Shown here piece by piece: positions 1,196 to 14,026 of a DNA stretch of 53,315 bases. Each line of letters opens with the position of its first letter. The first letter of the stretch is position 1. Below the pieces are notes generated by a model. The model saw only the letters and a list, made by a program, of their open reading frames with translations. It was not told where the DNA came from and did not search any database. This DNA comes from an uncultured Aminicenantes bacterium (GTDB taxonomy: Bacteria; Acidobacteriota; Aminicenantia; UBA2199). Position numbers and translations under genes: made by a program. The stretch is taken from assembly GCA_965195285.1 (NCBI GenBank), contig CBDAFS010000045.1, positions 1-53,315 of the forward strand, written 5' to 3'.

Positions 1196-4100
1196 TTGGA
1201 GAAAAAACAAAAGCAAGTAATTGGGAATTATTCAACTGGTATTCAAGTTGAAAATATATCACTAAACATAAATGTTGAAAAATCTGCCCTTTATGAATTA
1301 ATACTTAATTTAATTGAAAATACCAAAAGTAATAAATTTGAGAATATTAAAATTAGTGAAATTAGTGAAATTCTTAAAATTTCAAATATTGTATCAGAGC
1401 CACCACTAATTCCAAATAAAATTTCTTATAGGAAAAAACTTATTGATAATATATATGAAAAATTAAAAAAATTGACATGGATAGGAATATATGGCGAAAA
1501 AGGTACAGGTAAAACTTATATAACTTTATTACTAAATAAAAAATTTACTGGAAACAAATATTGGATCTCATTTAAAGATATAAAAAACGAACTTTCAGAT
1601 TTATATCTTGATGAAGTCATTAAATCACATTTTGGAGAAGAAGTTCCAAAAAAAAATATATATGATTATTTCAGTGTAATTTTAAAAAAGACACCAAAGA
1701 ATAGTATTTTTATCCTTGATGATTTACCTGAACTGCTGTTAAATTTCCCTTTAACTCAAAAGTTAATTTATTTTGCAAAAGTTTGTGCAGAAAATGGAAT
1801 AAAAATAATATCAACAAGTTTTTATAATTTCCATTCAGATTTTGTGTATTCTCTTGGAGAAAATGAAATTAATACTTTTTCACCCCCCCCTTTTTGTAAA
1901 GATGAAATTTCTGAATTATTTAATATGCACAATGCAAAAACCGAAATTATAAATAATAATGTTTTAGAATTCATATTAACAATCACAAAAGGAAATCCAA
2001 TTCTTATTAGTTCACTTATCAAATATTTAGAAAAAAAAGATTGGAAGTATGATCTAAACATTTTCAATGATTTAATCATGGATAAGTATGCAAAAGATGA
2101 AAAAAAACAATATTTTTTAATTTTTTCAAGAACTGTTATTGAAGAAATTAAAGACTTAGTTTATAGGTTAGATTTAATAAATAGAAAATTTTCTTATAAA
2201 GAGATTTTACTAGTAAGTGAAGTGGAACCAAAAATAAAAAATCCTTATGATAAATTAGGTTTTGTGTTAAATGTTTGGATTCAACAAACAGAGGATATGT
2301 TTGAACTATCTCCACTCATTAAGGGCATTGGCTTTTTTAATTTGGATTTTACAATTGCAAAAAATATTTTTATTAGCTTGGCCAATAATATAATTAGCAA
2401 AAAGTTCCTTAATCAAAATGAGGTGAGCCAAGTTATTGTTTATTATATAAAAGCTAAAGAATATAATCTGGCAGCTTTACTTTTAAAAGATATCTTAATT
2501 GAATTTTTAAAGATTGAAAATAGAAAATTTGAGGATTGGGGGATTTCCTATATTTGGGCTAATCAAGCTCTGCCAGAAGAGATTGATTTAGATTTAAGGT
2601 TAATTATACGCAGTTTGCAGCTAAAAATCAATCAAAAGTTGAATAGAAAATCTGATTTCATTTTAGAAGATACTAAGAAATTAATCAGAGAAGCAAGTAA
2701 GGATGAGATTTATGGAGTGATGATAATTTCTTTTGTTTTGGCAACAGAAAGAATAGATAATAAGGATCAACTATTTTATAGTTGTTTTATAAAAACTCTT
2801 CAATTTGAAAACAGAAATGATCTTTTAAATAAAATAAAGAATTTTCGTTATGAATATATCCTTTGGCTTATAGCATTTGAAATAGAAAAACCTACCCAAC
2901 TAATCCAATGGATTAACACAATTGATAAAATGCCAGTTGAGTCAAAAAAAATATTTTTTGAGTCTAAAGAGTTCACTGAAAAAATTTCTCTGATTTTTGA
3001 TAATGTATATTTAAACGAATATCATAAGACAAGTAATGAACAAGATTGGGACAAATTTTTGAAATACATTGAGAAATATGAAAATAAATTAAAAAAGATG
3101 AACATTGAAATATTTTGGTGTCTTTTAAAGCGCCTTCAAATATTGATCTTAGCAGAACATATTAAGGATTTTGATAAATCAATGAAAGTAGCAAGGAATT
3201 CTCTTGAAAATTTCTCTAAAAATCCTATAATTCAATTTATAATAAAAGGAATTATTGCAAGGGAAAATTTATTTAATAAAAGATTTGAAGAATCTGATAA
3301 ATGGTTTACAGATGCTTTTAAAGAAAATATTAACTCACTTTTTTCAGAAAAAATTCTTGGATTTTTATGGCAAGCAGAAGCAGTATCTCATTTTGATTTA
3401 GATAAAGCCATAAAAATATGTAAGGAGGGAATTAGTTTTTATAATAAAAACAAAAAAAATATTAATGAAAGTTTTTTATTAATGAGTTATGGAGAGTTAA
3501 TAATTCTTATTTTTAGAAAATTTGGGTTTTCTAAAACTTTTAAGGCATATGAAAAAGGGATTGAATTACTTTGGTCATCAAAACAAAAAGACAATACATG
3601 GAAAAAACTGTTTGTATTATTTGGTCATATTAGTGGATATCTATCAGCTATGGCGTGTTCTGGATCACCTCCTTCGGGGACAGAAAATGGAAAAATTTAT
3701 ACTCCGCCAACAACTGGAATGTTTATAAATATGTCTGATGAGTTGATTTCGTTGTATAAATCTGATAATGATTTTTTATTACCAACTCAAGTGGCAATTT
3801 TTGCAGAAGATATAGGAAATGATGAGAAAGCTTTAAAGTGGGCATTAATAGCTTACAAAGTTTTGCCAAAGAATAATTATTTTCTAATTTATCCCATCAT
3901 TATAAAAATTCTTATCCCAAATTTAATATTAAATAAAGAATTCAAAAAAGCTATTGTTATGTCATATGAATTTTTCCTTAAAAAACCAGATTTTGTTGAA
4001 AGGTCTATATCAAATTCTTATAAAGATAAAATATTTGAAGATCACATTTTGTACTCCACTATAATCCCAATTATGCTTAATTATGGAATATTGAAAATTC

Positions 4101-4600
4101 AAAATTTAATTAACAAAAATGAAATTGATTCATTAGTACAAAAAATCTCAAACATATCATTTGAAAATATAAATAACGGATCTCGGGTAAAGAGTGATAT
4201 TGAAAAAGTTTTTAAAATATCTTTATTTGAAGATTTTTCACATAATAATGTCATTGAATTGGGGAAAAAATATCAAAAAGAAGATAGAAAGGGATTTACA
4301 TTATTGTGTTTTATCGGTGCGATATTGAAAGATAATATTTCAATTGAAGATTCCATACAATTACAAGAAAAATTTATAGAATTCATTCAGAAACAATATT
4401 CAAAATCATTAAAATTTATCTACAGAAATATAATTATTAGATTTTTCATAACCTATTGGGAAAATGTTATCAAAATTAACAAAACAAAATTTAAATATAC
4501 TAAAACATTATTAAAAAAAATAAAAAATAATTTTGATTCTCAAAATGAACACTCACTTGTAAAAACATTTATTATGGTTAAAGATAATTTAATTAAATAA
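1196..4600 (+). CDS. STAND/NLR-like P-loop NTPase with long helical-repeat C-terminus and N-terminal motif matching the upstream protein
   Basis: Walker A GEKGTGKT, Walker B IFILDD, GNP motif (TKGNPILI), about 700 aa alpha-helical/TPR-like tail; N-terminus QKQVIGNYSTGIQVENISLNIN. Confidence 0.8.
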   Translation: MEKKQKQVIGNYSTGIQVENISLNINVEKSALYELILNLIENTKSNKFENIKISEISEILKISNIVSEPPLIPNKISYRKKLIDNIYEKLKKLTWIGIYGEKGTGKTYITLLLNKKFTGNKYWISFKDIKNELSDLYLDEVIKSHFGEEVPKKNIYDYFSVILKKTPKNSIFILDDLPELLLNFPLTQKLIYFAKVCAENGIKIISTSFYNFHSDFVYSLGENEINTFSPPPFCKDEISELFNMHNAKTEIINNNVLEFILTITKGNPILISSLIKYLEKKDWKYDLNIFNDLIMDKYAKDEKKQYFLIFSRTVIEEIKDLVYRLDLINRKFSYKEILLVSEVEPKIKNPYDKLGFVLNVWIQQTEDMFELSPLIKGIGFFNLDFTIAKNIFISLANNIISKKFLNQNEVSQVIVYYIKAKEYNLAALLLKDILIEFLKIENRKFEDWGISYIWANQALPEEIDLDLRLIIRSLQLKINQKLNRKSDFILEDTKKLIREASKDEIYGVMIISFVLATERIDNKDQLFYSCFIKTLQFENRNDLLNKIKNFRYEYILWLIAFEIEKPTQLIQWINTIDKMPVESKKIFFESKEFTEKISLIFDNVYLNEYHKTSNEQDWDKFLKYIEKYENKLKKMNIEIFWCLLKRLQILILAEHIKDFDKSMKVARNSLENFSKNPIIQFIIKGIIARENLFNKRFEESDKWFTDAFKENINSLFSEKILGFLWQAEAVSHFDLDKAIKICKEGISFYNKNKKNINESFLLMSYGELIILIFRKFGFSKTFKAYEKGIELLWSSKQKDNTWKKLFVLFGHISGYLSAMACSGSPPSGTENGKIYTPPTTGMFINMSDELISLYKSDNDFLLPTQVAIFAEDIGNDEKALKWALIAYKVLPKNNYFLIYPIIIKILIPNLILNKEFKKAIVMSYEFFLKKPDFVERSISNSYKDKIFEDHILYSTIIPIMLNYGILKIQNLINKNEIDSLVQKISNISFENINNGSRVKSDIEKVFKISLFEDFSHNNVIELGKKYQKEDRKGFTLLCFIGAILKDNISIEDSIQLQEKFIEFIQKQYSKSLKFIYRNIIIRFFITYWENVIKINKTKFKYTKTLLKKIKNNFDSQNEHSLVKTFIMVKDNLIK

Positions 4601-5387: not shown

Positions 5388-6308
5388 TTATATATTTTTT
5401 ATTTTCTCAATAAATGCATCTCTTGTTTGACCAGTAATTATATATAATTTGTTTTTTTTATATTTTAAGTTGAATTCTTCAAGTATTTTTTGAGCCTTAA
5501 TTGTTAATCTTAAAGCATTCGTTGCTATTATAACTGGGAATTTTGATGCAGATACTATTTTAAAAAATTTTTCTACTTGTTCACTTGGAAAATTTTTTCC
5601 TCTTTTATCATTCCAATATTCAATATAAATATAAAATATATTATCATTTTTGTTTTTAATTTCAGAGATGTATTTCCCTTTTGGAAAATAGTTGTTAATA
5701 TCATAGTAATGTAAATCTGCATTTTTTACTGCATCTCGAACTTTATATTTCAAATCTCTCTCACTATTTATAGTTGTAAATTGATCCTCTTTAACATATA
5801 AATCTTTTTGTTCTTTTAAATTGTGAATATTATCTAATTTTTTTTCAACTTTAAGAAATAAAGAATGAACAAAACGATCTCTTTGATTTCCTGTACAATC
5901 AAGAAATGTCTTCGGAAATTTAAATCTTTCACCTTCAAGTTGAAAAATTTGACGTTTTTTAAGTCCTTTTAGATTATGTCTCTCAAAATCCACTTGTTGT
6001 AACATTACAGGTATTATTGGTTTTTTATCAGTTTTTAAAAATATTGGAAGCTCTTTTTTTAATATATATTCAGATGCAAGAAAAGCTGGATTTATAAGAA
6101 GCAAGCCTAAATTACATCTTTTAAGAGCGGTGCGAATTTCTTCATCCCAATCTTCACCTATCAAAATATTTCCATCTTGCCAAAATTTGTACTCATACCT
6201 AAGAGATGCAGCAACTTGTTCTTTAAATCTTTCAAGAAATTTATTTGAATTGGCGCTATTTGATCTGGCATATGAAACAAAAAATTCGATCTTTATCCTT
6301 CTTCCCAT
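5388..6308 (-). CDS. TIR-domain protein with C-terminal restriction-endonuclease-like (Mrr-like) region
   Basis: FFVSYA...FWQD..ILIGEDW...LLLINPAFLASEYI.KKELP (TIR with putative catalytic Glu); C-terminal IYIEY...SEQVEKF...IIATNA..T..AQK resembles a degenerate Mrr catalytic fold. Confidence 0.75.
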   Translation of the reverse strand: MGRRIKIEFFVSYARSNSANSNKFLERFKEQVAASLRYEYKFWQDGNILIGEDWDEEIRTALKRCNLGLLLINPAFLASEYILKKELPIFLKTDKKPIIPVMLQQVDFERHNLKGLKKRQIFQLEGERFKFPKTFLDCTGNQRDRFVHSLFLKVEKKLDNIHNLKEQKDLYVKEDQFTTINSERDLKYKVRDAVKNADLHYYDINNYFPKGKYISEIKNKNDNIFYIYIEYWNDKRGKNFPSEQVEKFFKIVSASKFPVIIATNALRLTIKAQKILEEFNLKYKKNKLYIITGQTRDAFIEKIKNI

Positions 6309-6362: not shown

Positions 6363-7469
6363 TCAAATTATTGTATAGGTTGCATACATATGAGACTCAG
6401 GATAAGATTTTATCACATAATCAATGGGAGACAAATTCCCCAATGAGTTATGTGGTCTTTTAGTATTAAACCAGATAAGATGTTCCATAAGATCTTTGTT
6501 AAATTTAATCAAATCCCTGTCATCATAAAAAGGGTATGGGATCAGGAACTCTTCATTTAAGCTTCTGTTAGCCCTTTCAACAAAACTGTTTATTTTAGGA
6601 CATCTGGGATAGATGAAGAGATGTTCTATTTTCTTCTTTTTAAGGTATTGGTCAAATTTACCCAGGAACTCACTTCCATTATCTGTTTGTACTTTTTTTA
6701 TACCTCCTTTTAAAGGATATACCTGTTCAAGTTTTTTAAAGAAATCAAGACCATCACTGCTACTGGCAGAGTGATATGCATAAGAGAACTGAAACCGTGT
6801 CGATAGATCTATTGCATTAAAAATATAGGTCCTTATCCCCTCCATAAATCTTAGCATTGTATCGATCTGAATATATCCGGGAGTTGATATCTTTGGTGAT
6901 CTCTTTACCCTGTTCTTATAAGATACTTTCCTTTTTGCCCATTTACTTGACGGGTTATGATACACACGGCCATTGGGAGGGTGGAGCATATCATATCTCC
7001 TTATCACTTTACCTATTGTTGATACTGATATGCTATCGAGGTCATTTGTCTCACAGTATTCATCCAAAAACGGTTTGATCTTCTCTTTACCAAGACGGTA
7101 ATGATCTCTCCTTAGCTTCCTGATATAATTGATCAGTTCTCTTTTTACCATCATCTTACGCTTAACTTTAGGGGACCTGGATCTCGGAATTAGAGAGGTC
7201 AGCTCTTTGCCACTCGATTTATATAACTTAAACCACCTATAGATCGTTGCTCTCGATACTCCATATGCATCCATGCAGGATCTCAATCCATGACTCTCAA
7301 AATGCTCTATTACTTTTAATCTGAACTTACCCCGGGTACTGCCTGAAAATTTGAATATCTCCTCATATGAACTCATAACTCCTTTATTACATAGTGGAGT
7401 CCCGTACCACAAGTCTCTATAACGGGTCGATCGACCTATTTTGCCTCGCATATTTAAACTCTTATACAA
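6363..7469 (-). CDS. DDE transposase (IS481 family, integrase core)
   Basis: HTH (GVSRATIYRW), IQIDT, QTDNGSEF, NSFVERANR, N..RPH.SL...SP. Confidence 0.9.
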   Translation of the reverse strand: MYKSLNMRGKIGRSTRYRDLWYGTPLCNKGVMSSYEEIFKFSGSTRGKFRLKVIEHFESHGLRSCMDAYGVSRATIYRWFKLYKSSGKELTSLIPRSRSPKVKRKMMVKRELINYIRKLRRDHYRLGKEKIKPFLDEYCETNDLDSISVSTIGKVIRRYDMLHPPNGRVYHNPSSKWAKRKVSYKNRVKRSPKISTPGYIQIDTMLRFMEGIRTYIFNAIDLSTRFQFSYAYHSASSSDGLDFFKKLEQVYPLKGGIKKVQTDNGSEFLGKFDQYLKKKKIEHLFIYPRCPKINSFVERANRSLNEEFLIPYPFYDDRDLIKFNKDLMEHLIWFNTKRPHNSLGNLSPIDYVIKSYPESHMYATYTII

Positions 7470-7504
7470 TACATAAGAGTCTCATATGTTTCGTAACTTA
7501 TTCA
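6372..7504 (-). mobile_element. IS481-family insertion sequence, apparently intact
   Basis: IRs TGTATAGGTTGCATACATATGAGACTC (6372-6398) and GAGTCTCATATGTTTCGTAACTTATTCA (7477-7504); 5-bp flanking duplication ATTAT (6367-6371, 7505-7509). Confidence 0.8.
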
Positions 7505-7564
7505 ATTATTATGAAATGATCAAAGATGGTAAATGCAATTAAGTGTAGCAAAATAAATTAAATA

Positions 7565-7634
7565 TCAACGTTTTATGCAACAGTGCGCCCATTCCAACGG
7601 TTTTTCTCCTGTTGTTGCCATCTTTCTCTCCTTT
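7565..7634 (-). pseudogene. Truncated inverted duplicate of the zinc-ribbon gene at 10436
   Basis: Minus strand AAGGAGAGAAAGATGGCAAC..AGGAGAAAAACC (MATTGEKP) matches 10424-10459, then joins CTGTTGCATAAAA also seen at ~10690. Confidence 0.6.
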
Positions 7635-7708
7635 TCTATAATTGACATTTTTTAACGGAATCTTTTTTGAAAAGCAGGCTCACAGTGCTTGACAAGGATG
7701 TTGCTTGA

Positions 7709-7782
7709 GTGTGCCAAGCAGCCTGTTGCAATCTAGAGGGTTAAAATCCCTCACGGGCAAAGCTTAGCCAACAGACCGTGTC
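7709..7782 (+). mobile_element. Probable group II intron 5'-end remnant (copy 1)
   Basis: GTGTGCCAAGCAGCCTG...GAGGGTTAAAATCCCTCACGGGCAAAG; begins with GUGYG; similar to 10053 and 12620. Confidence 0.5.
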
Positions 7783-8004
7783 AAACGGCATATAAATTAC
7801 GAAGCAAATTGGAAGAAAATTTCATGATTTTATCCTGTATTAAAACGATACATTCATTAAAAACATTAATAATATCGAATATTCTTACATAATTGATAAA
7901 TTTTGAAAAATTAATGTTTTGAAATGGAACACCCTCAATATTCATTCAAATTCATTAAAAATTCAAAACCATTGATAAAAGACATTTTATAGTATCAAAA
8001 AAAA

Positions 8005-8021
8005 TTGGCATTTAAAATGCT
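8005..8021 (+). promoter_or_regulatory. sigma54 (-24/-12) promoter candidate
   Basis: TTGGCATTTAAAATGCT: GG and GC separated by exactly 10 nt; RBS GGAGGAG about 20 nt downstream. Confidence 0.5.
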
Positions 8022-8053
8022 ATATATATCTGTATTATTGGGAGGAGAAAATT

Positions 8054-8125
8054 ATGAAGATTAAAAGTATGGTTTGTTTTATTACCGTCCTTTCTTTAAT
8101 CTGCACAAAAAGTCTTTTTGGCTAG
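8054..8125 (+). pseudogene. 23-aa signal-peptide-only ORF (truncated exported protein)
   Basis: GGAGGAG RBS; MKIKSMVCFITVLSLICTKSLFG-stop. Confidence 0.45.
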
Positions 8126-8193
8126 GTCTTTTTTAAGAAAGAAAAATCAAGATAACTAAGCAAAATAGCATTGAAAAAAAATATTGTAACGGT

Positions 8194-8275
8194 GCTTGAC
8201 ACGGGCTACACGGCTCACTTTGTTTGCCCAAATTTCGGCTACTCCAAAACATCGTATATGCTGAGAATGTTAGGG
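8194..8275 (+). other. Degenerate integron attC site (upstream of RiPP module)
   Basis: R''-like GCTTGAC, L''-like CTACACG pairing imperfectly with CGTATATG, internal hairpins, R' GTTAGGG at 8269-8275. Confidence 0.55.
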
Positions 8276-8344
8276 AAGGAAATGTGGGCTCAGTTCTTTC
8301 ATTACAACATTTAAAGTGGATAGCCTTTTACCGAGAGGTGAAAC

Positions 8345-8569
8345 ATGATTGGAAGGATGAAAATGTATGTTCTCCCAGAGGGATGTATATGCGAACAGTT
8401 CACATATCTTACCAATTCAGGTGTATATCCGACCTGTTCGGATATGAATGAGTTAGGCGACATTGCATTGAAAGTAATGTTGCCATTTCAACTTAAAAAG
8501 AAAGGAGGTGATAGTAATGACGCAGAGACGAGTACCTACCGCTCCAACAGCCGGAACAGTTGTGCTTGA
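8345..8569 (+). CDS. Small Cys-containing hypothetical protein (possible accessory or second precursor)
   Basis: GAGAGGTG RBS 4 nt before ATG; overlaps the precursor start by about 50 nt. Confidence 0.35.
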   Translation: MIGRMKMYVLPEGCICEQFTYLTNSGVYPTCSDMNELGDIALKVMLPFQLKKKGGDSNDAETSTYRSNSRNSCA

Positions 8570-8747
8570 CGCAGGGGCAGCTGCTAAATTAGTTGCTGGA
8601 ATTACCGAGGCTAAATTGGCGAACATTCGCGAAATCCTAGCCACGAGGAAAGAAATTGCTGCTATGAGGGCCGAAGACGTTGAGAAATTGGCAAGGCTTG
8701 CGGAGGTTAATGTGGCTAACGGCGGTTGCGGTATTGGTTGTTGGTAG
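8517..8747 (+). CDS. Putative RiPP precursor peptide (76 aa) with C-terminal core GGCGIGCW
   Basis: Strong RBS AAGGAGGTG; helical Ala/Glu/Lys leader, Cys/Gly/Trp tail; directly upstream of a radical SAM/SPASM gene. Confidence 0.8.
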   Translation: MTQRRVPTAPTAGTVVLDAGAAAKLVAGITEAKLANIREILATRKEIAAMRAEDVEKLARLAEVNVANGGCGIGCW

Positions 8748-8755
8748 GTTAAAGC

Positions 8756-8798
8756 GGTTTTATGGGGGCAGTCCACTTGTGGACTTCCCCCATAAACC
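8756..8798 (+). terminator. Strong hairpin between precursor and maturase (stabiliser/attenuator)
   Basis: GGTTTTATGGGGGCAGTCCAC-TT-GTGGACTTCCCCCATAAACC. Confidence 0.65.
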
Positions 8799-8852
8799 TC
8801 TAGTGAGCTGTAAAGTTTTGGTGTTAACATTGCTACTGATGAAAGAAAGAGA

Positions 8853-9968
8853 ATGAGAAAAGAATTGAACAGGTTAGTGCTATCTGTCACTTCGCACTGT
8901 AACTTACGTTGTGAATATTGTTACGTTTTCAATGACAACAAAGAGCATTTTATACCTAAAACCATGACGCCTAGGATTATTCAGAAGGCGATCTATAAAA
9001 TATTCAATAGCTACAATGCTGTTCAATTTGTTCAGTTCTTTGGGGGAGAACCCCATTTAGCTCTTCAGAGTATGCAGATTGCGGTTGACGAAACTCGAAA
9101 GGTTTGCGAGATTCGTAAATTACTACATCCCCAATTCGGAATTGTTACAAATCTAATGATTCTTAATGAGGAAATCTTATCTTTTTACAAGGATAATCAT
9201 CTAAGAGTCACAGTGAGCATAGATGGCCCTGAGACGGTCCATAATTTTTTAAGAGTATATCCATCTGGAAGCGGTACTCACAACAAGGTTGTTCAAAATC
9301 TTGGGAGATTGCGCGATATGGGGATACCTTTTGCAGTAGAGTGCACATTTACTCAAATGCACATTAAGAAAGGGATAACGATAGTGGATTTACTAAAGTA
9401 CTTTGACCAGATAGGAGCAGTGCGCGCAGATATAGTATGTGTGATGGCCAAGCCTGACTCCAAGTTGTATGTTCATGGTGAGACTTTACCGCAGCTTATA
9501 CAACTGTTTATCAAAGCTGTTGACTATTGGTTTGATTATTGGCGACAAGGCGGAAAGACAGTGTTTGGAATAATAGGTGAGATCCTTGCAATGGTTAGTT
9601 CGTCACAAAAGGAAATTTATTGTCCTGCTGGAGAATCGTATTTGGCAGTAGCTCCTGATGGTAGAATTTACCCATGTCATCTTTTTATCAGTGATAGGAA
9701 GTATGTGCTCGGAAATGTCGAAGATTCTGGGCCACTCCATCTTTCAGGTTTCAAAAACTCTTTAAAGAGCAGTACCTCCTGTAAAAGTTGTCCAATTAAT
9801 TCCCTATGCCTCAGCTGCTTAGGTAGAAACAAGTACTATTGCGGCAATTTGGATCAACCATTCGTATCCGATTGTATTCTGAAAAGTAAGATCATAAGTA
9901 GAACATTAGAAAACCTGTGTGATGGGTTATTACCAGAAAATCAGGCCACGTCACCTAACACAGCATAA
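8853..9968 (+). CDS. Radical SAM/SPASM-domain peptide maturase (anSME-like)
   Basis: CNLRCEYC, FFGGEP, SIDGP..HN..R, SPASM C.AG...DG.IYPC...CKSC.....C..C...C. Confidence 0.9.
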   Translation: MRKELNRLVLSVTSHCNLRCEYCYVFNDNKEHFIPKTMTPRIIQKAIYKIFNSYNAVQFVQFFGGEPHLALQSMQIAVDETRKVCEIRKLLHPQFGIVTNLMILNEEILSFYKDNHLRVTVSIDGPETVHNFLRVYPSGSGTHNKVVQNLGRLRDMGIPFAVECTFTQMHIKKGITIVDLLKYFDQIGAVRADIVCVMAKPDSKLYVHGETLPQLIQLFIKAVDYWFDYWRQGGKTVFGIIGEILAMVSSSQKEIYCPAGESYLAVAPDGRIYPCHLFISDRKYVLGNVEDSGPLHLSGFKNSLKSSTSCKSCPINSLCLSCLGRNKYYCGNLDQPFVSDCILKSKIISRTLENLCDGLLPENQATSPNTA

Positions 9969-10031
9969 AAGGTTCAGGCTACGCCATAACCAAAATTGCT
10001 TTCCGGTAACTTCTTTTATCCGCAAGACGTA
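9953..10031 (+). other. Integron attC-like site overlapping the rSAM stop (R' end degenerate)
   Basis: R'' ACCTAAC, 5 nt, ATAAAAG ... CTTTTAT complementary pair, ends AAGACGT; R'' complements the GTTAGG at 8269. Confidence 0.55.
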
Positions 10032-10052
10032 AAAAAGTGTATCGGTGCTTGA

Positions 10053-10105
10053 GTGCGACAAGCAAGCTGGTGTAATCCAGGGGGTTAAAATCCCTCACGG
10101 GGAAG
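10053..10105 (+). mobile_element. Probable group II intron 5'-end remnant (copy 2)
   Basis: GTGCGACAAGCAAGCTGGTGTAATCCAGGGGGTTAAAATCCCTCACGGGGAAG, preceded like copy 1 by TGCTTGA. Confidence 0.55.
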
Positions 10106-10180
10106 TAAAAATTGGGGATAGGATTTGAAAAGTTTTAAAATTATATTTTGGATTTAATAAATTTCGAGGAGGGAAACATA

Positions 10181-10420
10181 ATGTCTGAAAGTTTGAAAGA
10201 TTTAAGGTCAATGTCTGAATCAGAATTAATTGAAAAACATGATAGATTGGCAAATACAACTCAGATTGGGATAAATCATTATTTGAATGAACTTGATAGA
10301 AGAGATCAGGAAAGGCATACAAAAGAGATGAAGAGATTTACTTGTTGGATTACAATAATGACATTTATTATAACAATTTTTACAGCTCTGAATGTAATTT
10401 TATTTGCAATAAAAAAGTAA
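10181..10420 (+). CDS. Small hypothetical protein with C-terminal TM helix
   Basis: GAGGAGG RBS; hydrophobic WITIMTFIITIFTALNVILFA tail. Confidence 0.65.
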   Translation: MSESLKDLRSMSESELIEKHDRLANTTQIGINHYLNELDRRDQERHTKEMKRFTCWITIMTFIITIFTALNVILFAIKK

Positions 10421-11595: not shown

Positions 11596-11950
11596 AAAGG
11601 GTTGGGGACGGTCTTTTGGATTTTTGATTTTTTTTCTATTGTATATAAATCCGGGGACGGGGTTTTAATATTTTAATTTTTTTAAAAGACAAAACCAGGG
11701 ATGCTATTGTTAATTTATTCATTTAAAAAAGAAAAAGGGTGGGGGATGACCTTTTGAATTTTTGATTTTTTTCTATTGTTTCTAAGTAAGCGTCTAATTA
11801 ACCATACCTGATATTTCTGGATGACATTTCTCTGTATTTGTTAGGGATCTGGTTTTCCCACCCAAGAGAATAAATAATCCAATCTTCCGTCTCCATTTGG
11901 TTAAGGAAATTCTTAAAGAAGTCAAGAAAGCAACGTCCCCAATCTTCGTC
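11596..11950. repeat. Cluster of GGGGAC-core REP-like repeats
   Basis: GGGTTGGGGACGGTCTTTTGGATTTTTG (11599), CCGGGGACGGGG (11651), GGGTGGGGGATGACCTTTTG (11737), inverse GCAACGTCCCCAATC (~11930). Confidence 0.8.
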
Positions 11951-12466: not shown

Positions 12467-12562
12467 AATTCAGCTCAGATCAGGGCAAAGGGAGAAGTAT
12501 ATTTAGATAAGCTTTAAAATTGGATTTTTTTCATCTCTCCCCAGTTTTTTCCTTTTTTCAGA

Positions 12563-12610
12563 AAGGTTGGGGACGGTCTTTTGGAATTTTGATTTATTTT
12601 CTATTGTTTA
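12563..12610. repeat. REP-like repeat copy
   Basis: AAGGTTGGGGACGGTCTTTTGGAATTTTGATTTATTTTCTATTG. Confidence 0.8.
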
Positions 12611-12619
12611 TGGTAATCC

Positions 12620-12706
12620 AAGGATGTTGCTTAGCACACTCAAGTAAGCAGATGCAATTTAGAGGATTCAAATCTCCCATGGGCAAAGTGTATTCAGCCA
12701 CCCGTT
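12620..12706 (+). mobile_element. Degenerate third copy of the intron-like 5' element
   Basis: AAGGATGTTGCTT...TGCAATTTAGAGGATTCAAATCTCCCATGGGCAAAG...AGCCACCCGT aligns with 7694-7780. Confidence 0.45.
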
Positions 12707-13597: not shown

Positions 13598-14026
13598 CTA
13601 TTTGTTGAAATCTCTTGGGCGATGAAGTTTTAAGCCAAGTATTTTTGAATAGTTTTGAAAGTCATTATCAGAGGTAAATATAGTGAATTCATTTCTTTTG
13701 GCAAAAGCACATATTAAAAAATCAATATGAGAGCCTTGAATCCCTTTTTTTCTGCTGGTATTATAAAATTCCGCAGCCAGTTCATAATCAGTAGAATGAA
13801 TTGAAAAATCTTTGAAAGCCTTTAATTTATTTTTTAATTTATTGAATTGAACTGTATCTGAAATTCCAGATAGAATCTCCTGTCTTATCGGACCAATTAG
13901 TATTGCTCGGGTTTCGTTAATAAGTTCTTTTAATTCTTTCAGAGTTAATTCATCTTTTCTATCATCTAGTCCTTTTTTTCGACGAAATGCCAGAGACCAT
14001 ATAGATGTATCAATAAGAATTTTCAT
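13598..14026 (-). CDS. vapC: VapC PIN-domain toxin
   Basis: ILIDTSIW, E.LSG, D.LI.A.A, T.D.DF. Confidence 0.9.
   Translation of the reverse strand: MKILIDTSIWSLAFRRKKGLDDRKDELTLKELKELINETRAILIGPIRQEILSGISDTVQFNKLKNKLKAFKDFSIHSTDYELAAEFYNTSRKKGIQGSHIDFLICAFAKRNEFTIFTSDNDFQNYSKILGLKLHRPRDFNK

Follow-up and report, generated by a model that had tools for sequence, protein, structure and literature searches.

A candidate two-gene RiPP-type cassette that pairs a two-cysteine peptide with an RRE-less radical SAM/SPASM enzyme

Radical SAM/SPASM peptide systems are a main source of new peptide chemistry. Among them, SCIFF loci consist essentially of a precursor and its maturase. The streptococcal enzyme NxxcB forms a beta-thioether from Cys to the upstream Asn of an NxxC motif and tolerates Asp in its place (PMC9389541), and the acceptor of PapB must lie C-terminal to the Cys (PMC12373016). 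In phylogenetic trees, thioether-forming SPASM enzymes are interleaved with makers of C-C and C-O bonds (PMC10288494); therefore homology alone leaves the chemistry unfixed. The two large catalogues admitted a system only if it had an RRE or an ABC transporter next to it (PMC10288494). The family described below has neither, so catalogue-type screens would miss it. Its core strings and the host names senegalensis and Hoeflea are absent from the supplementary table of PMC10288494, and a search of a full-text article library with the core strings returned no relevant match.

We analysed a 53,315-nucleotide stretch of DNA from an uncultured Aminicenantes bacterium (contig CBDAFS010000045.1), referred to throughout as the window. 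A preliminary description, made from the sequence alone, had proposed an unrecognised RiPP-type pair of a short peptide and an RRE-less radical SAM/SPASM enzyme, and a hexapeptide that could be cut out after Gly-Gly and carry thioether or Cys-Trp links; we retain the pair and the RRE-less enzyme and find no support for the cleavage and the Cys-Trp link as family features. We favour, with moderate confidence, the reading that these genes form a new two-gene RiPP-type cassette of an unnamed family, whose enzyme would bridge both invariant cysteines through thioethers, a chemistry that we infer. A Cys-containing precursor next to a maturase, a trait of ranthipeptides and sactipeptides, is present in the window and in six other loci.

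The peptide gene and the intergenic stem-loop

The first gene (8517-8747, + strand) encodes a peptide of 76 aa, MTQRR...VANGGCGIGCW, followed by a stop codon; it is established by its ORF, homologues, alignments and AF2 helices. Its ATG at 8517 lies within a larger ORF (8508-8747, +), and a GGAGG ribosome-binding site, read from the sequence, stands 8 nt 5' of it (8504-8508, +). Position 8345, originally given as the start, is that of another, out-of-frame ORF of 74 aa, while the 76-aa peptide with its helical leader and terminal GGCGIGCW was correctly described. Within 8517-8747 (+) we distinguish a leader (residues 1-65) from a conserved tail (residues 66-76). An AF2 model built from a 32-sequence alignment (mean pLDDT 71.7) places helices at residues 19-42, 44-48 and 52-65 and coil at 66-76; the leader is therefore predicted to be helical. 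The core motif N68-G-G-C71-G-I-G-C75-W76 occupies 8718-8744 (+) and was delimited by the invariant columns of this alignment and by tabulation of 82 family members. Compared codon by codon with the copy at locus L085, the window peptide has 29 identical codons, 22 that differ only synonymously and 26 that are nonsynonymous. Pfam and NCBIfam (the latter at E <= 1) gave 0 matches for the peptide, and the ESM Atlas gave no usable match.

Directly 3' of the peptide stop codon, folding locates a stem-loop (8762-8793, +; extended stem 8756-8798), the hairpin already noticed between the two genes. It corresponds to inverted repeat I3, whose 18-nt arms are 94% complementary. The segment 8740-8860 folds at -38 kcal/mol (z = -3.9, with 0/200 shuffles as good), and for the intergenic piece by itself z is -3.1 (1/200 shuffles as good). 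The stem-loop has no U-tract and is not listed by the terminator scan, and an Rfam search of 7400-10400 at E <= 1 found nothing relevant. In the window, L085 and L160 (z about -3 to -3.8), and more weakly in L084 (z = -1.2), the peptide stop is followed by a stem-loop whose sequence shows no relation from one locus to the next; the hairpin is absent from L049 (z = -0.2) and from L083, where merely 8 nt separate the genes. In the window the structure probably holds the peptide mRNA in excess over the enzyme mRNA. An integron-cassette origin of the repeats that bracket the cassette was considered and dropped: the best integrase match genome-wide scored 98 bits against 265, and the repeat showed no covariation.

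The peptide family and its linkage to the enzyme gene

Profile searches yielded 82 non-redundant relatives of 65-96 aa. The peptide has 3 close homologues; a search of 1.84 billion representative proteins gave 26 profile matches, and one of 5.8 billion gave 70 clusters. Every member (82/82) ends in x-G-x-C-x-x(x)-G-C plus 0-7 residues. The tail is exactly CGIGCW in 56 of the 82, the family consensus GGCGIGCW occurs in 49, and 76 members contain exactly two Cys. In window numbering, G69, C71, G74 and C75 are invariant, and the two cysteines are the sole invariant side chains of the tail. Although small, the family is genuine, and its core is unusually constant.

The same tabulation bears on the proposal that a cut after GG frees the hexapeptide CGIGCW, crosslinked by thioethers or Cys-Trp, for export in the manner of a bacteriocin. 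GG does precede the first Cys in 60/82 members, and GG, GS or GA in 64/82, but the remaining 18 have GN or GH. Counted back from the first Cys, position -2 is G in 82/82; position -1 is G in 60, N in 16, S in 3, H in 2 and A in 1; and position -3 is D or N in 69/82. Because G(-2) is invariant, G(-1) is variable and D/N(-3) is conserved together with the core, the conserved block begins before the 'GG', and it looks like part of the modified core rather than the end of the leader. No C39 peptidase transporter occurs in the loci examined, the only C39 match in the genome being a 309-aa ORF on another contig, and the core is near-identical across distant hosts, unlike the variable cores of bacteriocins. 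Release of an exported hexapeptide is therefore very unlikely. As family features, GG cleavage finds no support, given the variable -1 position and the lack of a nearby C39 protein, and the Cys-Trp crosslink fails on the residue after the second Cys, which is Trp in only 59/82 and otherwise A, F, C, M, K, S or none.

Linkage to the enzyme is established by locus comparison. A peptide HMM run over 162 loci gave six matches besides the window (L083, L084, L085, L118, L160 and L049), and in each the peptide gene lies just upstream of a radical SAM gene on the same strand. Where the enzyme is at least 45% identical and upstream DNA is available, 3/3 loci carry the peptide; L086 and L087 begin inside the enzyme gene and have no upstream DNA. 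Eight further peptide/radical SAM pairs agree in source and in the length of the longest contig, and presumably lie on the same contig. The other neighbours of the cassette differ in every locus, and none is conserved. No sulfatase was found among the scanned neighbours (window, L049, L083-L087, L160), and, as first reported, no peptidase or transporter among the 12 neighbouring ORFs scanned in the window, nor beside the relatives examined.

A further rival reading makes the small ORF something other than the substrate: a protein that partners or regulates the enzyme, or an ORF without function. We consider this highly improbable: the ribosome-binding site is strong, the 82 relatives keep frame, length and end, the gene always lies upstream of that for the enzyme and on the same strand, and an unstructured, Cys-bearing extreme C-terminal tail is typical of radical SAM substrates.

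The hosts named by the sources are Pseudodesulfovibrio, Bradyrhizobium, a Chloroflexi MAG and Hoeflea, with Hoeflea olei JC234 and Pseudodesulfovibrio senegalensis as cultured carriers. Of 214 relatives in species genomes, the 80 best are at most 38% identical, and among these 80 the peptide occurs at one locus, in H. olei, so further carriers may lie among the rest; across the order of H. olei it was found in 1/301 sampled genomes, namely H. olei itself. A search of 60 related genomes at E <= 1e-30 did not recover the enzyme. The family is rare, widely scattered and so far unnamed, and it probably yields a small sulfur-bridged peptide.

The radical SAM/SPASM enzyme and its probable chemistry

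The second gene (8853-9968, +) encodes a radical SAM/SPASM peptide-maturase-like protein of 371 aa, assigned by Pfam, NCBIfam, PDB sequence comparison, an AF2 model (pLDDT 77.6) and Foldseek. It matches Radical_SAM (PF04055; 56.9 bits vs a cut-off of 29.5), Fer4_12 and SPASM (PF13186; 24.1 vs 21.5). Alignment A2 establishes the cofactor motifs: a CX3CX2C motif (C16, C20, C23; 8898-8921, +) for the SAM-binding [4Fe-4S] cluster, and a SPASM region (9621-9875, +) with seven conserved cysteines (C257, C275, C310, C313, C319, C322, C341). Each of the seven aligns with a cysteine in CteB, and the enzyme lacks the additional Cys that anSME has. Only 15 residues precede CX3CX2C. An N-terminal RRE is absent, as had been claimed: matches to RRE-bearing families begin at profile position 77-96, and the CteB match begins at residue 95-97 of the CteB chain. 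A scan of the 12 larger neighbouring ORFs gave no PqqD-like match.

The enzyme falls below every curated NCBIfam cut-off and the peptide matches no Pfam or NCBIfam family; the two do look like an unrecognised pair of RiPP type. The best models are PapB (166.5 bits vs 340), the SCIFF maturase (129.6 vs 425) and QhpD (123.3 vs 453), all of which describe formers of Cys thioethers; RumMC (87.9 vs 720) and GggB (78.7 vs 650) are likewise not passed. PapB is also the top NCBIfam model for each clade member tested (120-178 bits, cut-off 340), and five other clade members likewise stay below the curated maturase cut-offs. The closest solved structure is CteB, by profile (E = 4.5e-50) and by Foldseek (TMq 0.80). 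PADLOC gave weak pVip matches only, over the radical SAM core (45 bits), and none for the peptide. The initial separation from named classes holds up: no SCIFF peptide model matched, MftC and PqqE are outside the top 25 NCBIfam matches, and a triceptide assignment is opposed by the position of Trp as the last residue and by the scores for YhhB (91.1 vs 445) and GrrM (68 vs 310).

A quick IQ-TREE analysis placed four RRE-less subclades in a polytomy, with an SH-aLRT of 93 for the whole group. Given this polytomy we dropped the monophyly of the peptide-bearing enzymes, and we claim one RRE-less group and no peptide-specific clade. A sister clade carries a second unnamed peptide family (...CGCGCCCCC...), which suggests a wider unexplored RRE-less branch. 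We do not claim a leader common to both peptide families (hhalign, 42% probability over 24 columns).

In our working model, the 76-aa product would be the substrate of the enzyme. The amphipathic helical leader (about residues 19-65) would dock straight onto the RRE-less enzyme, and the unstructured C-terminal block (D/N)-G-G-C-G-I-G-C-W would enter the active site. The enzyme, resembling CteB, PapB, QhpD and NxxcB, would cleave SAM and take a hydrogen from a tail carbon, and the activated carbon would bond to the sulfur of each invariant Cys, likely giving two small thioether rings. These may be acceptor-x-G-Cys rings, one spanning residue 68 to C71 and the other residue 72 to C75; the alpha-carbons of the invariant glycines, or the C-terminal residue, could serve as acceptors instead. 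Seven-Cys SPASM domains have been read as leaving an open AuxI iron able to bind a substrate Cys (PMC13692751). Leader binding, leader fate, the type of chemistry and the acceptor sites are what we infer, with thioether formation as our best guess. Several findings speak against the model: the only conserved polar tail residue is N-terminal to the Cys, opposite to PapB; the second acceptor of the model, residue 72, is Gly in most members; the cassette includes neither protease nor exporter; and no family model is passed. A complex prediction from the enzyme alignment (A2) and the peptide alignment (A4) gave a score of 0.05 (mark 0.32), which weighs neither for nor against the model.

Other sulfur chemistry in the same pair is possible, and we rate it as unlikely though by no means negligible. 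It could be anSME-like oxidation of the Cys beta-carbon to formylglycine or a thioaldehyde, a methylene or thioacetal Cys-Cys bridge, or a bond with the last residue, next to its free carboxylate, of the type PapB makes in vitro. anSME is the second-best structure (TMq 0.71; E = 5e-30), lacks an RRE and has a similar length, and a YydG-like, epimerase-type radical SAM enzyme lies beside the L083 and L087 loci (88 bits vs a cut-off of 300). The chain ends zero or one residue past the second Cys in 73/82 members, so a free C-terminus may matter, and PapB joins Cys to a C-terminal Gly or D-residue (PMC12373016). The same paper, however, has PapB refusing C-terminal L-residues except Gly, and the distance to the carboxylate is variable, 2-7 residues following the second Cys in 9/82 and none in one member. 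The anaerobic sulfatase maturase model TIGR03942 is not passed (116 vs 349.45), the cysteine pattern is the seven of CteB and not that of anSME, and neither a CxPxR motif nor a nearby sulfatase is present.

Lower still we place action on non-sulfur positions, such as a Trp/Ile C-C or C-O crosslink or an epimerisation, with the cysteines serving as a disulfide, metal site or cluster handle. SPASM enzymes of similar sequence catalyse many reactions (PMC10288494), the RRE-less cyclophane enzyme ChlB is close structurally (TMq 0.73; E = 1e-21), and Trp is terminal in 56/82 peptides. Yet the two cysteines are the only fixed tail side chains. Other residues can take the place of Ile and Trp: 11 members have GNG between the cysteines, and in others the end residue is A, F, C or M. 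A last-position Trp is unable to start an aromatic-X-X cyclophane motif, and the cyclophane models score far under their cut-offs, as with YhhB above.

As to the product of the cassette, something that stays inside the cell, either a small molecule derived from the peptide or a crosslinked mini-protein of fixed structure, rather than an exported antibiotic, is conceivable, and we suggest it only tentatively; it would be a redox cofactor, metal binder or signal, for instance, with a status like that of mycofactocin or SCIFF. Distant hosts share the nine-residue core (D/N)GGCGIGCW almost without change, neither protease nor exporter accompanies the cassette, and the substrate would be read without an RRE. 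The rings could also involve new chemistry, as would a stack of two four-residue thioether rings of which one is anchored at a Gly alpha-carbon.

Comparison with described systems

The SCIFF ranthipeptide system (CteB; PDB 5WGG, TIGR03974) shares the radical SAM and seven-Cys SPASM architecture and Cys thioethers. CteB differs in about 95 N-terminal residues, its RRE, that the window enzyme lacks, and SCIFF peptides have six Cys in forty-five residues, whereas the window family has two (76/82 members) and a longer leader. PapB (freyrasin; NF047865) also makes Cys thioethers and can bridge Cys to a C-terminal residue (PMC12373016), but it is a 467-aa protein with an RRE, against 371 aa without one, and its CX3D/E motif places the acceptor C-terminal to the Cys, where the window tail has no such acidic residue. 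The streptococcal RaS-RiPP NxxC and its enzyme NxxcB resemble the family in an Asn/Asp three residues before Cys (PMC9389541), as seen at -3 in 69/82 peptides; the likeness is limited to the motif, and hosts, leader and cassette make-up differ. anSME (PDB 4K36-4K39) has a SPASM domain, similar length and no RRE, and differs in an extra Cys at the SPASM start and in its sulfatase targets, none of which is adjacent in the scanned loci.

Mycofactocin and PQQ share with the cassette a C-terminal core near-identical across distant phyla, a radical SAM/SPASM enzyme and the lack of an exporter, but both depend on additional enzymes and on an RRE carried by a protein of its own (MftB, PqqD), and their cores (GVY; E...Y) are unrelated to that of the window. 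ChlB (PDB 9GM3) forms C-C cyclophanes on aromatic-X-X, for which the window tail has no suitably placed motif, and its sequence match is limited to residues 8-250. With two genes, a constant core and cultured, harmless carriers, the family is testable by co-expression, and the cassette could make clear how a helical leader is recognised by a maturase that lacks an RRE; ChlB, an RRE-less SPASM maturase crystallised, by its entry title, with its substrate leader, provides a precedent for such direct leader binding.

A conserved peptide family with a Cys/Gly tail

The putative precursor gene lies within a plus-strand ORF at 8508-8747. Translation from an internal ATG at 8517, 8 bases behind a GGAGG ribosome-binding site (8504-8508, +), yields the 76-aa peptide with a GGCGIGCW end that a preliminary description had claimed, terminating in VANGGCGIGCW. 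The left coordinate of that description, 8345, was mistaken: an unrelated ORF in another frame starts there. The G+C content of the peptide gene is 51.5%, versus 39% for the enzyme gene and 33% for the flanks. An AF2 model of the peptide predicted helices at residues 19-42, 44-48 and 52-65, with the tail as coil.

A word-based search found three close homologues (64-84% identity), all ending CGIGC(W/C). Among 1.84 billion representatives, 26 proteins matched a nine-sequence profile at E <= 1e-3, and a 32-sequence profile retrieved 70 clusters among 5.8 billion. Pooling gave 82 non-redundant peptides of 65-96 aa, on which the following counts are based. Relative to the first Cys, residue -2 was G in all 82; residue -3 was D (49), N (20), H (6), S (5), T (1) or V (1), and residue -1 was G (60), N (16), S (3), H (2) or A (1). 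The stretch between the two Cys was GIG in 60 peptides, GNG in 11, FIG in 4, GFG in 3 and otherwise in 4. The second Cys was followed by W (56), A (6), F (4), C (3), M (1), nothing (1) or 2-7 residues (11), so that 56/82 peptides end exactly in CGIGCW; 76 of the 82 contain exactly two Cys over their full length. Columns G69, C71, G74 and C75 were invariant in the 32-sequence alignment. Between the window gene and its copy at L085, a locus with a closely related enzyme, 29 codons were identical, 22 differed only synonymously and 26 carried replacements. Judged by its sequence, the peptide is a member of a real family and not a chance ORF. It was rightly called unrecognised: the window peptide had no match in Pfam or NCBIfam (June 2026), four relatives had no significant NCBIfam match, and the source records annotate members of the 82-peptide family only as 'hypothetical protein'.

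Linkage to an RRE-less radical SAM/SPASM enzyme

The 371-aa enzyme encoded at 8853-9968 (+) matches Pfam Radical_SAM, Fer4_12 and SPASM, and carries CX3CX2C at residues 16-23 plus seven more conserved Cys. It scored below the cut-off of every one of its best NCBIfam models: PapB (166.5 bits; cut-off 340), SCIFF maturase (129.6; 425) and QhpD (123.3; 453), followed by the nif11-type maturase and anSME, the anaerobic sulfatase-maturating enzyme (116; 349). Five other clade members behaved likewise, none passing a model. The closest solved structure was the SCIFF ranthipeptide maturase CteB (profile E = 4.5e-50, query 4-348 on chain residues 95-442), which was also the best Foldseek match (TMq 0.80), with anSME and ChlB next among solved structures. 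In a residue alignment all seven SPASM Cys of the enzyme pair with CteB Cys, but the ~95 CteB residues forming its RRE (RiPP recognition element) have no counterpart, as expected from the earlier claim that the gene lacks an N-terminal RRE. In a FastTree phylogeny of 125 relatives from the comparison loci, the family clade and its sister clade have 0-16 residues before the core (once 26 or 42), versus 50-135 in nearly all others. A quick IQ-TREE (51 rows) grouped the RRE-less enzymes (SH-aLRT 93), with four subclades in a polytomy.

A search for short ORFs ending CGxGCW near enzyme homologues had been proposed. When a peptide HMM was run on all stop-to-stop frames of 162 loci, six beyond the window matched, each with the peptide gene directly 5' of the radical SAM gene and in the same orientation (enzyme identity to the window's: L085 73%, L083 46%, L084 45%, L118 33%, L160 28%, L049 26%). 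L086 and L087 also hold close enzyme relatives; the DNA of both begins inside the enzyme gene. In each of eight further peptide/enzyme pairs, the two members agree in source and in the length of their longest contig (1658, 1648, 9498, 8039, 2481, 2298, 7682 and 6519 nt), and we infer that each pair lies on one contig.

No other neighbour was conserved around the pair at the loci scanned. Near it in the window are genes for an IS481-type transposase and for TIR, PIN and zinc-ribbon proteins; L160 carries his genes together with a secretin and a ComM-like ATPase, L049 encodes a transglutaminase-like protein and a WYL regulator, and L084 has a weak cytochrome-like ORF. The scanned neighbours included no peptidase or transporter, in agreement with the preliminary description, and no sulfatase, a neighbour it had said would count against its reading. 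In the L083/L087 subclade alone, the family enzyme gene is followed directly by another radical SAM gene (L083 6541-7563; L087 695-1711), which scores highest against the YydG peptide epimerase model (88 bits; cut-off 300) and might add D-residues.

The hairpin described between the two genes was found at 8762-8793, after the peptide stop codon, with 18-bp arms, no U-tract and z = -3.1. Stem-loops of unrelated sequence stand at the same place in L085 (15 bp, z = -3.8) and L160 (12 bp, z = -3.1). That of L084 is weaker (9 bp, z = -1.2), none was found at the L049 intergenic position (z = -0.2), and the L083 gap is just 8 nt. The stem-loop would fit a device raising precursor mRNA above enzyme mRNA.

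Related enzymes are preceded by other peptides. The RRE-less sister clade has its own conserved ~85-aa upstream peptide (L106 7605-7853; L120 1332-1592; L114 1748-1999; L088 6-263; L025 785-1060; L119 208-483), with an aligned motif ...ELV(D/E)AQGRxDRE(F/Y)L... and core CG(C/R)G(S/C)CCCC. Two members tested had no NCBIfam match, and these peptides appear to form another precursor family that has no name. Many RRE-bearing relatives (26-33% identical) follow short peptides, rich in Cys and Gly, in which a C-x-x-G-C unit is repeated (among them L033 5557-5676, L098 7559-7696, L045 5632-5748 and L054 5503-5685; for example ...FGIICGGGCWGIGCIG), four of which, when tested, had no significant NCBIfam match. 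The C-x-x-G-C unit thus recurs more widely.

Distribution and mobility of the cassette

Its genome carries one copy of the peptide-enzyme cassette. A search of 60 related genomes, including three from the same genus, did not find the enzyme at E <= 1e-30, and among 301 genomes sampled from the order of Hoeflea olei the peptide occurred in Hoeflea olei alone. The carriers identified by name are Pseudodesulfovibrio senegalensis, Bradyrhizobium sp. HKCCYLS3077, Hoeflea olei JC234 and a Chloroflexi MAG; Candidatus Saccharicenans is the name given for one close relative of the enzyme. Contigs of a second study hold the cassette with 0-5 differences. The scattered distribution, the adjacent IS and bracketing repeats point to a rare and horizontally moving cassette.

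A 59-nt direct repeat (7702-7760, 10046-10104 and 12628-12686; later copies 85% and 68% identical to the first) brackets the cassette and the next gene block. It has five genome copies, two on other contigs, and two hairpins, one T-arm-like, in which covariation was sought and not found. A T-rich 50-nt repeat occurs three times (11597-11646, 11734-11783, 12562-12611), with raised contig depth. Contigs from two runs of another study connect 11634 with 7693 through 18 other letters, so that the order of blocks near the cassette is not the same in all samples. The IS481-type transposase element (rve + HTH domains; 6403-7498) is a multi-copy insertion sequence: in all four runs it assembled as a separate 1096-nt contig, several- to many-fold deeper, and both of its borders had loose ends. 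Genes for the TIR-domain protein (5388-6308, -; weakly ThsB-like, 29 bits), the PIN-domain protein (13598-14026, -) and a 1134-aa ORF (1196-4600, +) with no Pfam or PADLOC match sit in DNA of 24-27% G+C, and together resemble an island of accessory or defence type that surrounds the cassette.

Proposed chemistry and comparison with known systems

The family is real; its thioether chemistry is a proposal. The best reading, in which we have moderate confidence, is that the enzyme would form thioethers on the peptide tail, because the three closest characterised enzymes all join Cys sulfur to carbon, the two Cys are the sole invariant side chains in the tail, and a seven-Cys SPASM has been read as leaving the AuxI iron open to a substrate thiolate (PMC13692751). 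We infer candidate acceptors from the tail, which could be divided into two units of the form acceptor-x-G-C (NGGC and GIGC). In NxxC, NxxcB attaches Cys to the upstream Asn at its beta-carbon and tolerates Asp (PMC9389541). Alternatively, the acceptors might be the alpha-carbons of the invariant Gly, or the residue at the C-terminus; a precedent for the C-terminus is the in-vitro C-terminal macrocyclisation by PapB, for which Gly or a D-residue is described as necessary, along with a free carboxylate (PMC12373016).

The two large catalogues of radical SAM RiPPs are described as restricted to systems associated with an RRE or an ABC transporter (PMC10288494); neither feature occurs in this family. 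The core strings, senegalensis and Hoeflea were all absent from the supplementary table of that paper, and a full-text literature search with the core strings returned nothing relevant.

Under the thioether reading, the cassette would putatively work like ranthipeptide and sactipeptide systems. It nevertheless fails the membership tests of every named family, in that the models are not passed, the RRE is absent and the precursor is of another family, in line with the claim that it is neither SCIFF nor another defined family. The additional Cys of anSME has no counterpart in the enzyme. The (D/N)-G-G-C block of the peptide resembles the NxxC motif of NxxcB (PMC9389541), and ChlB, going by the title of PDB 9GM3, offers a structural precedent for a SPASM enzyme that has no RRE and binds the leader directly.
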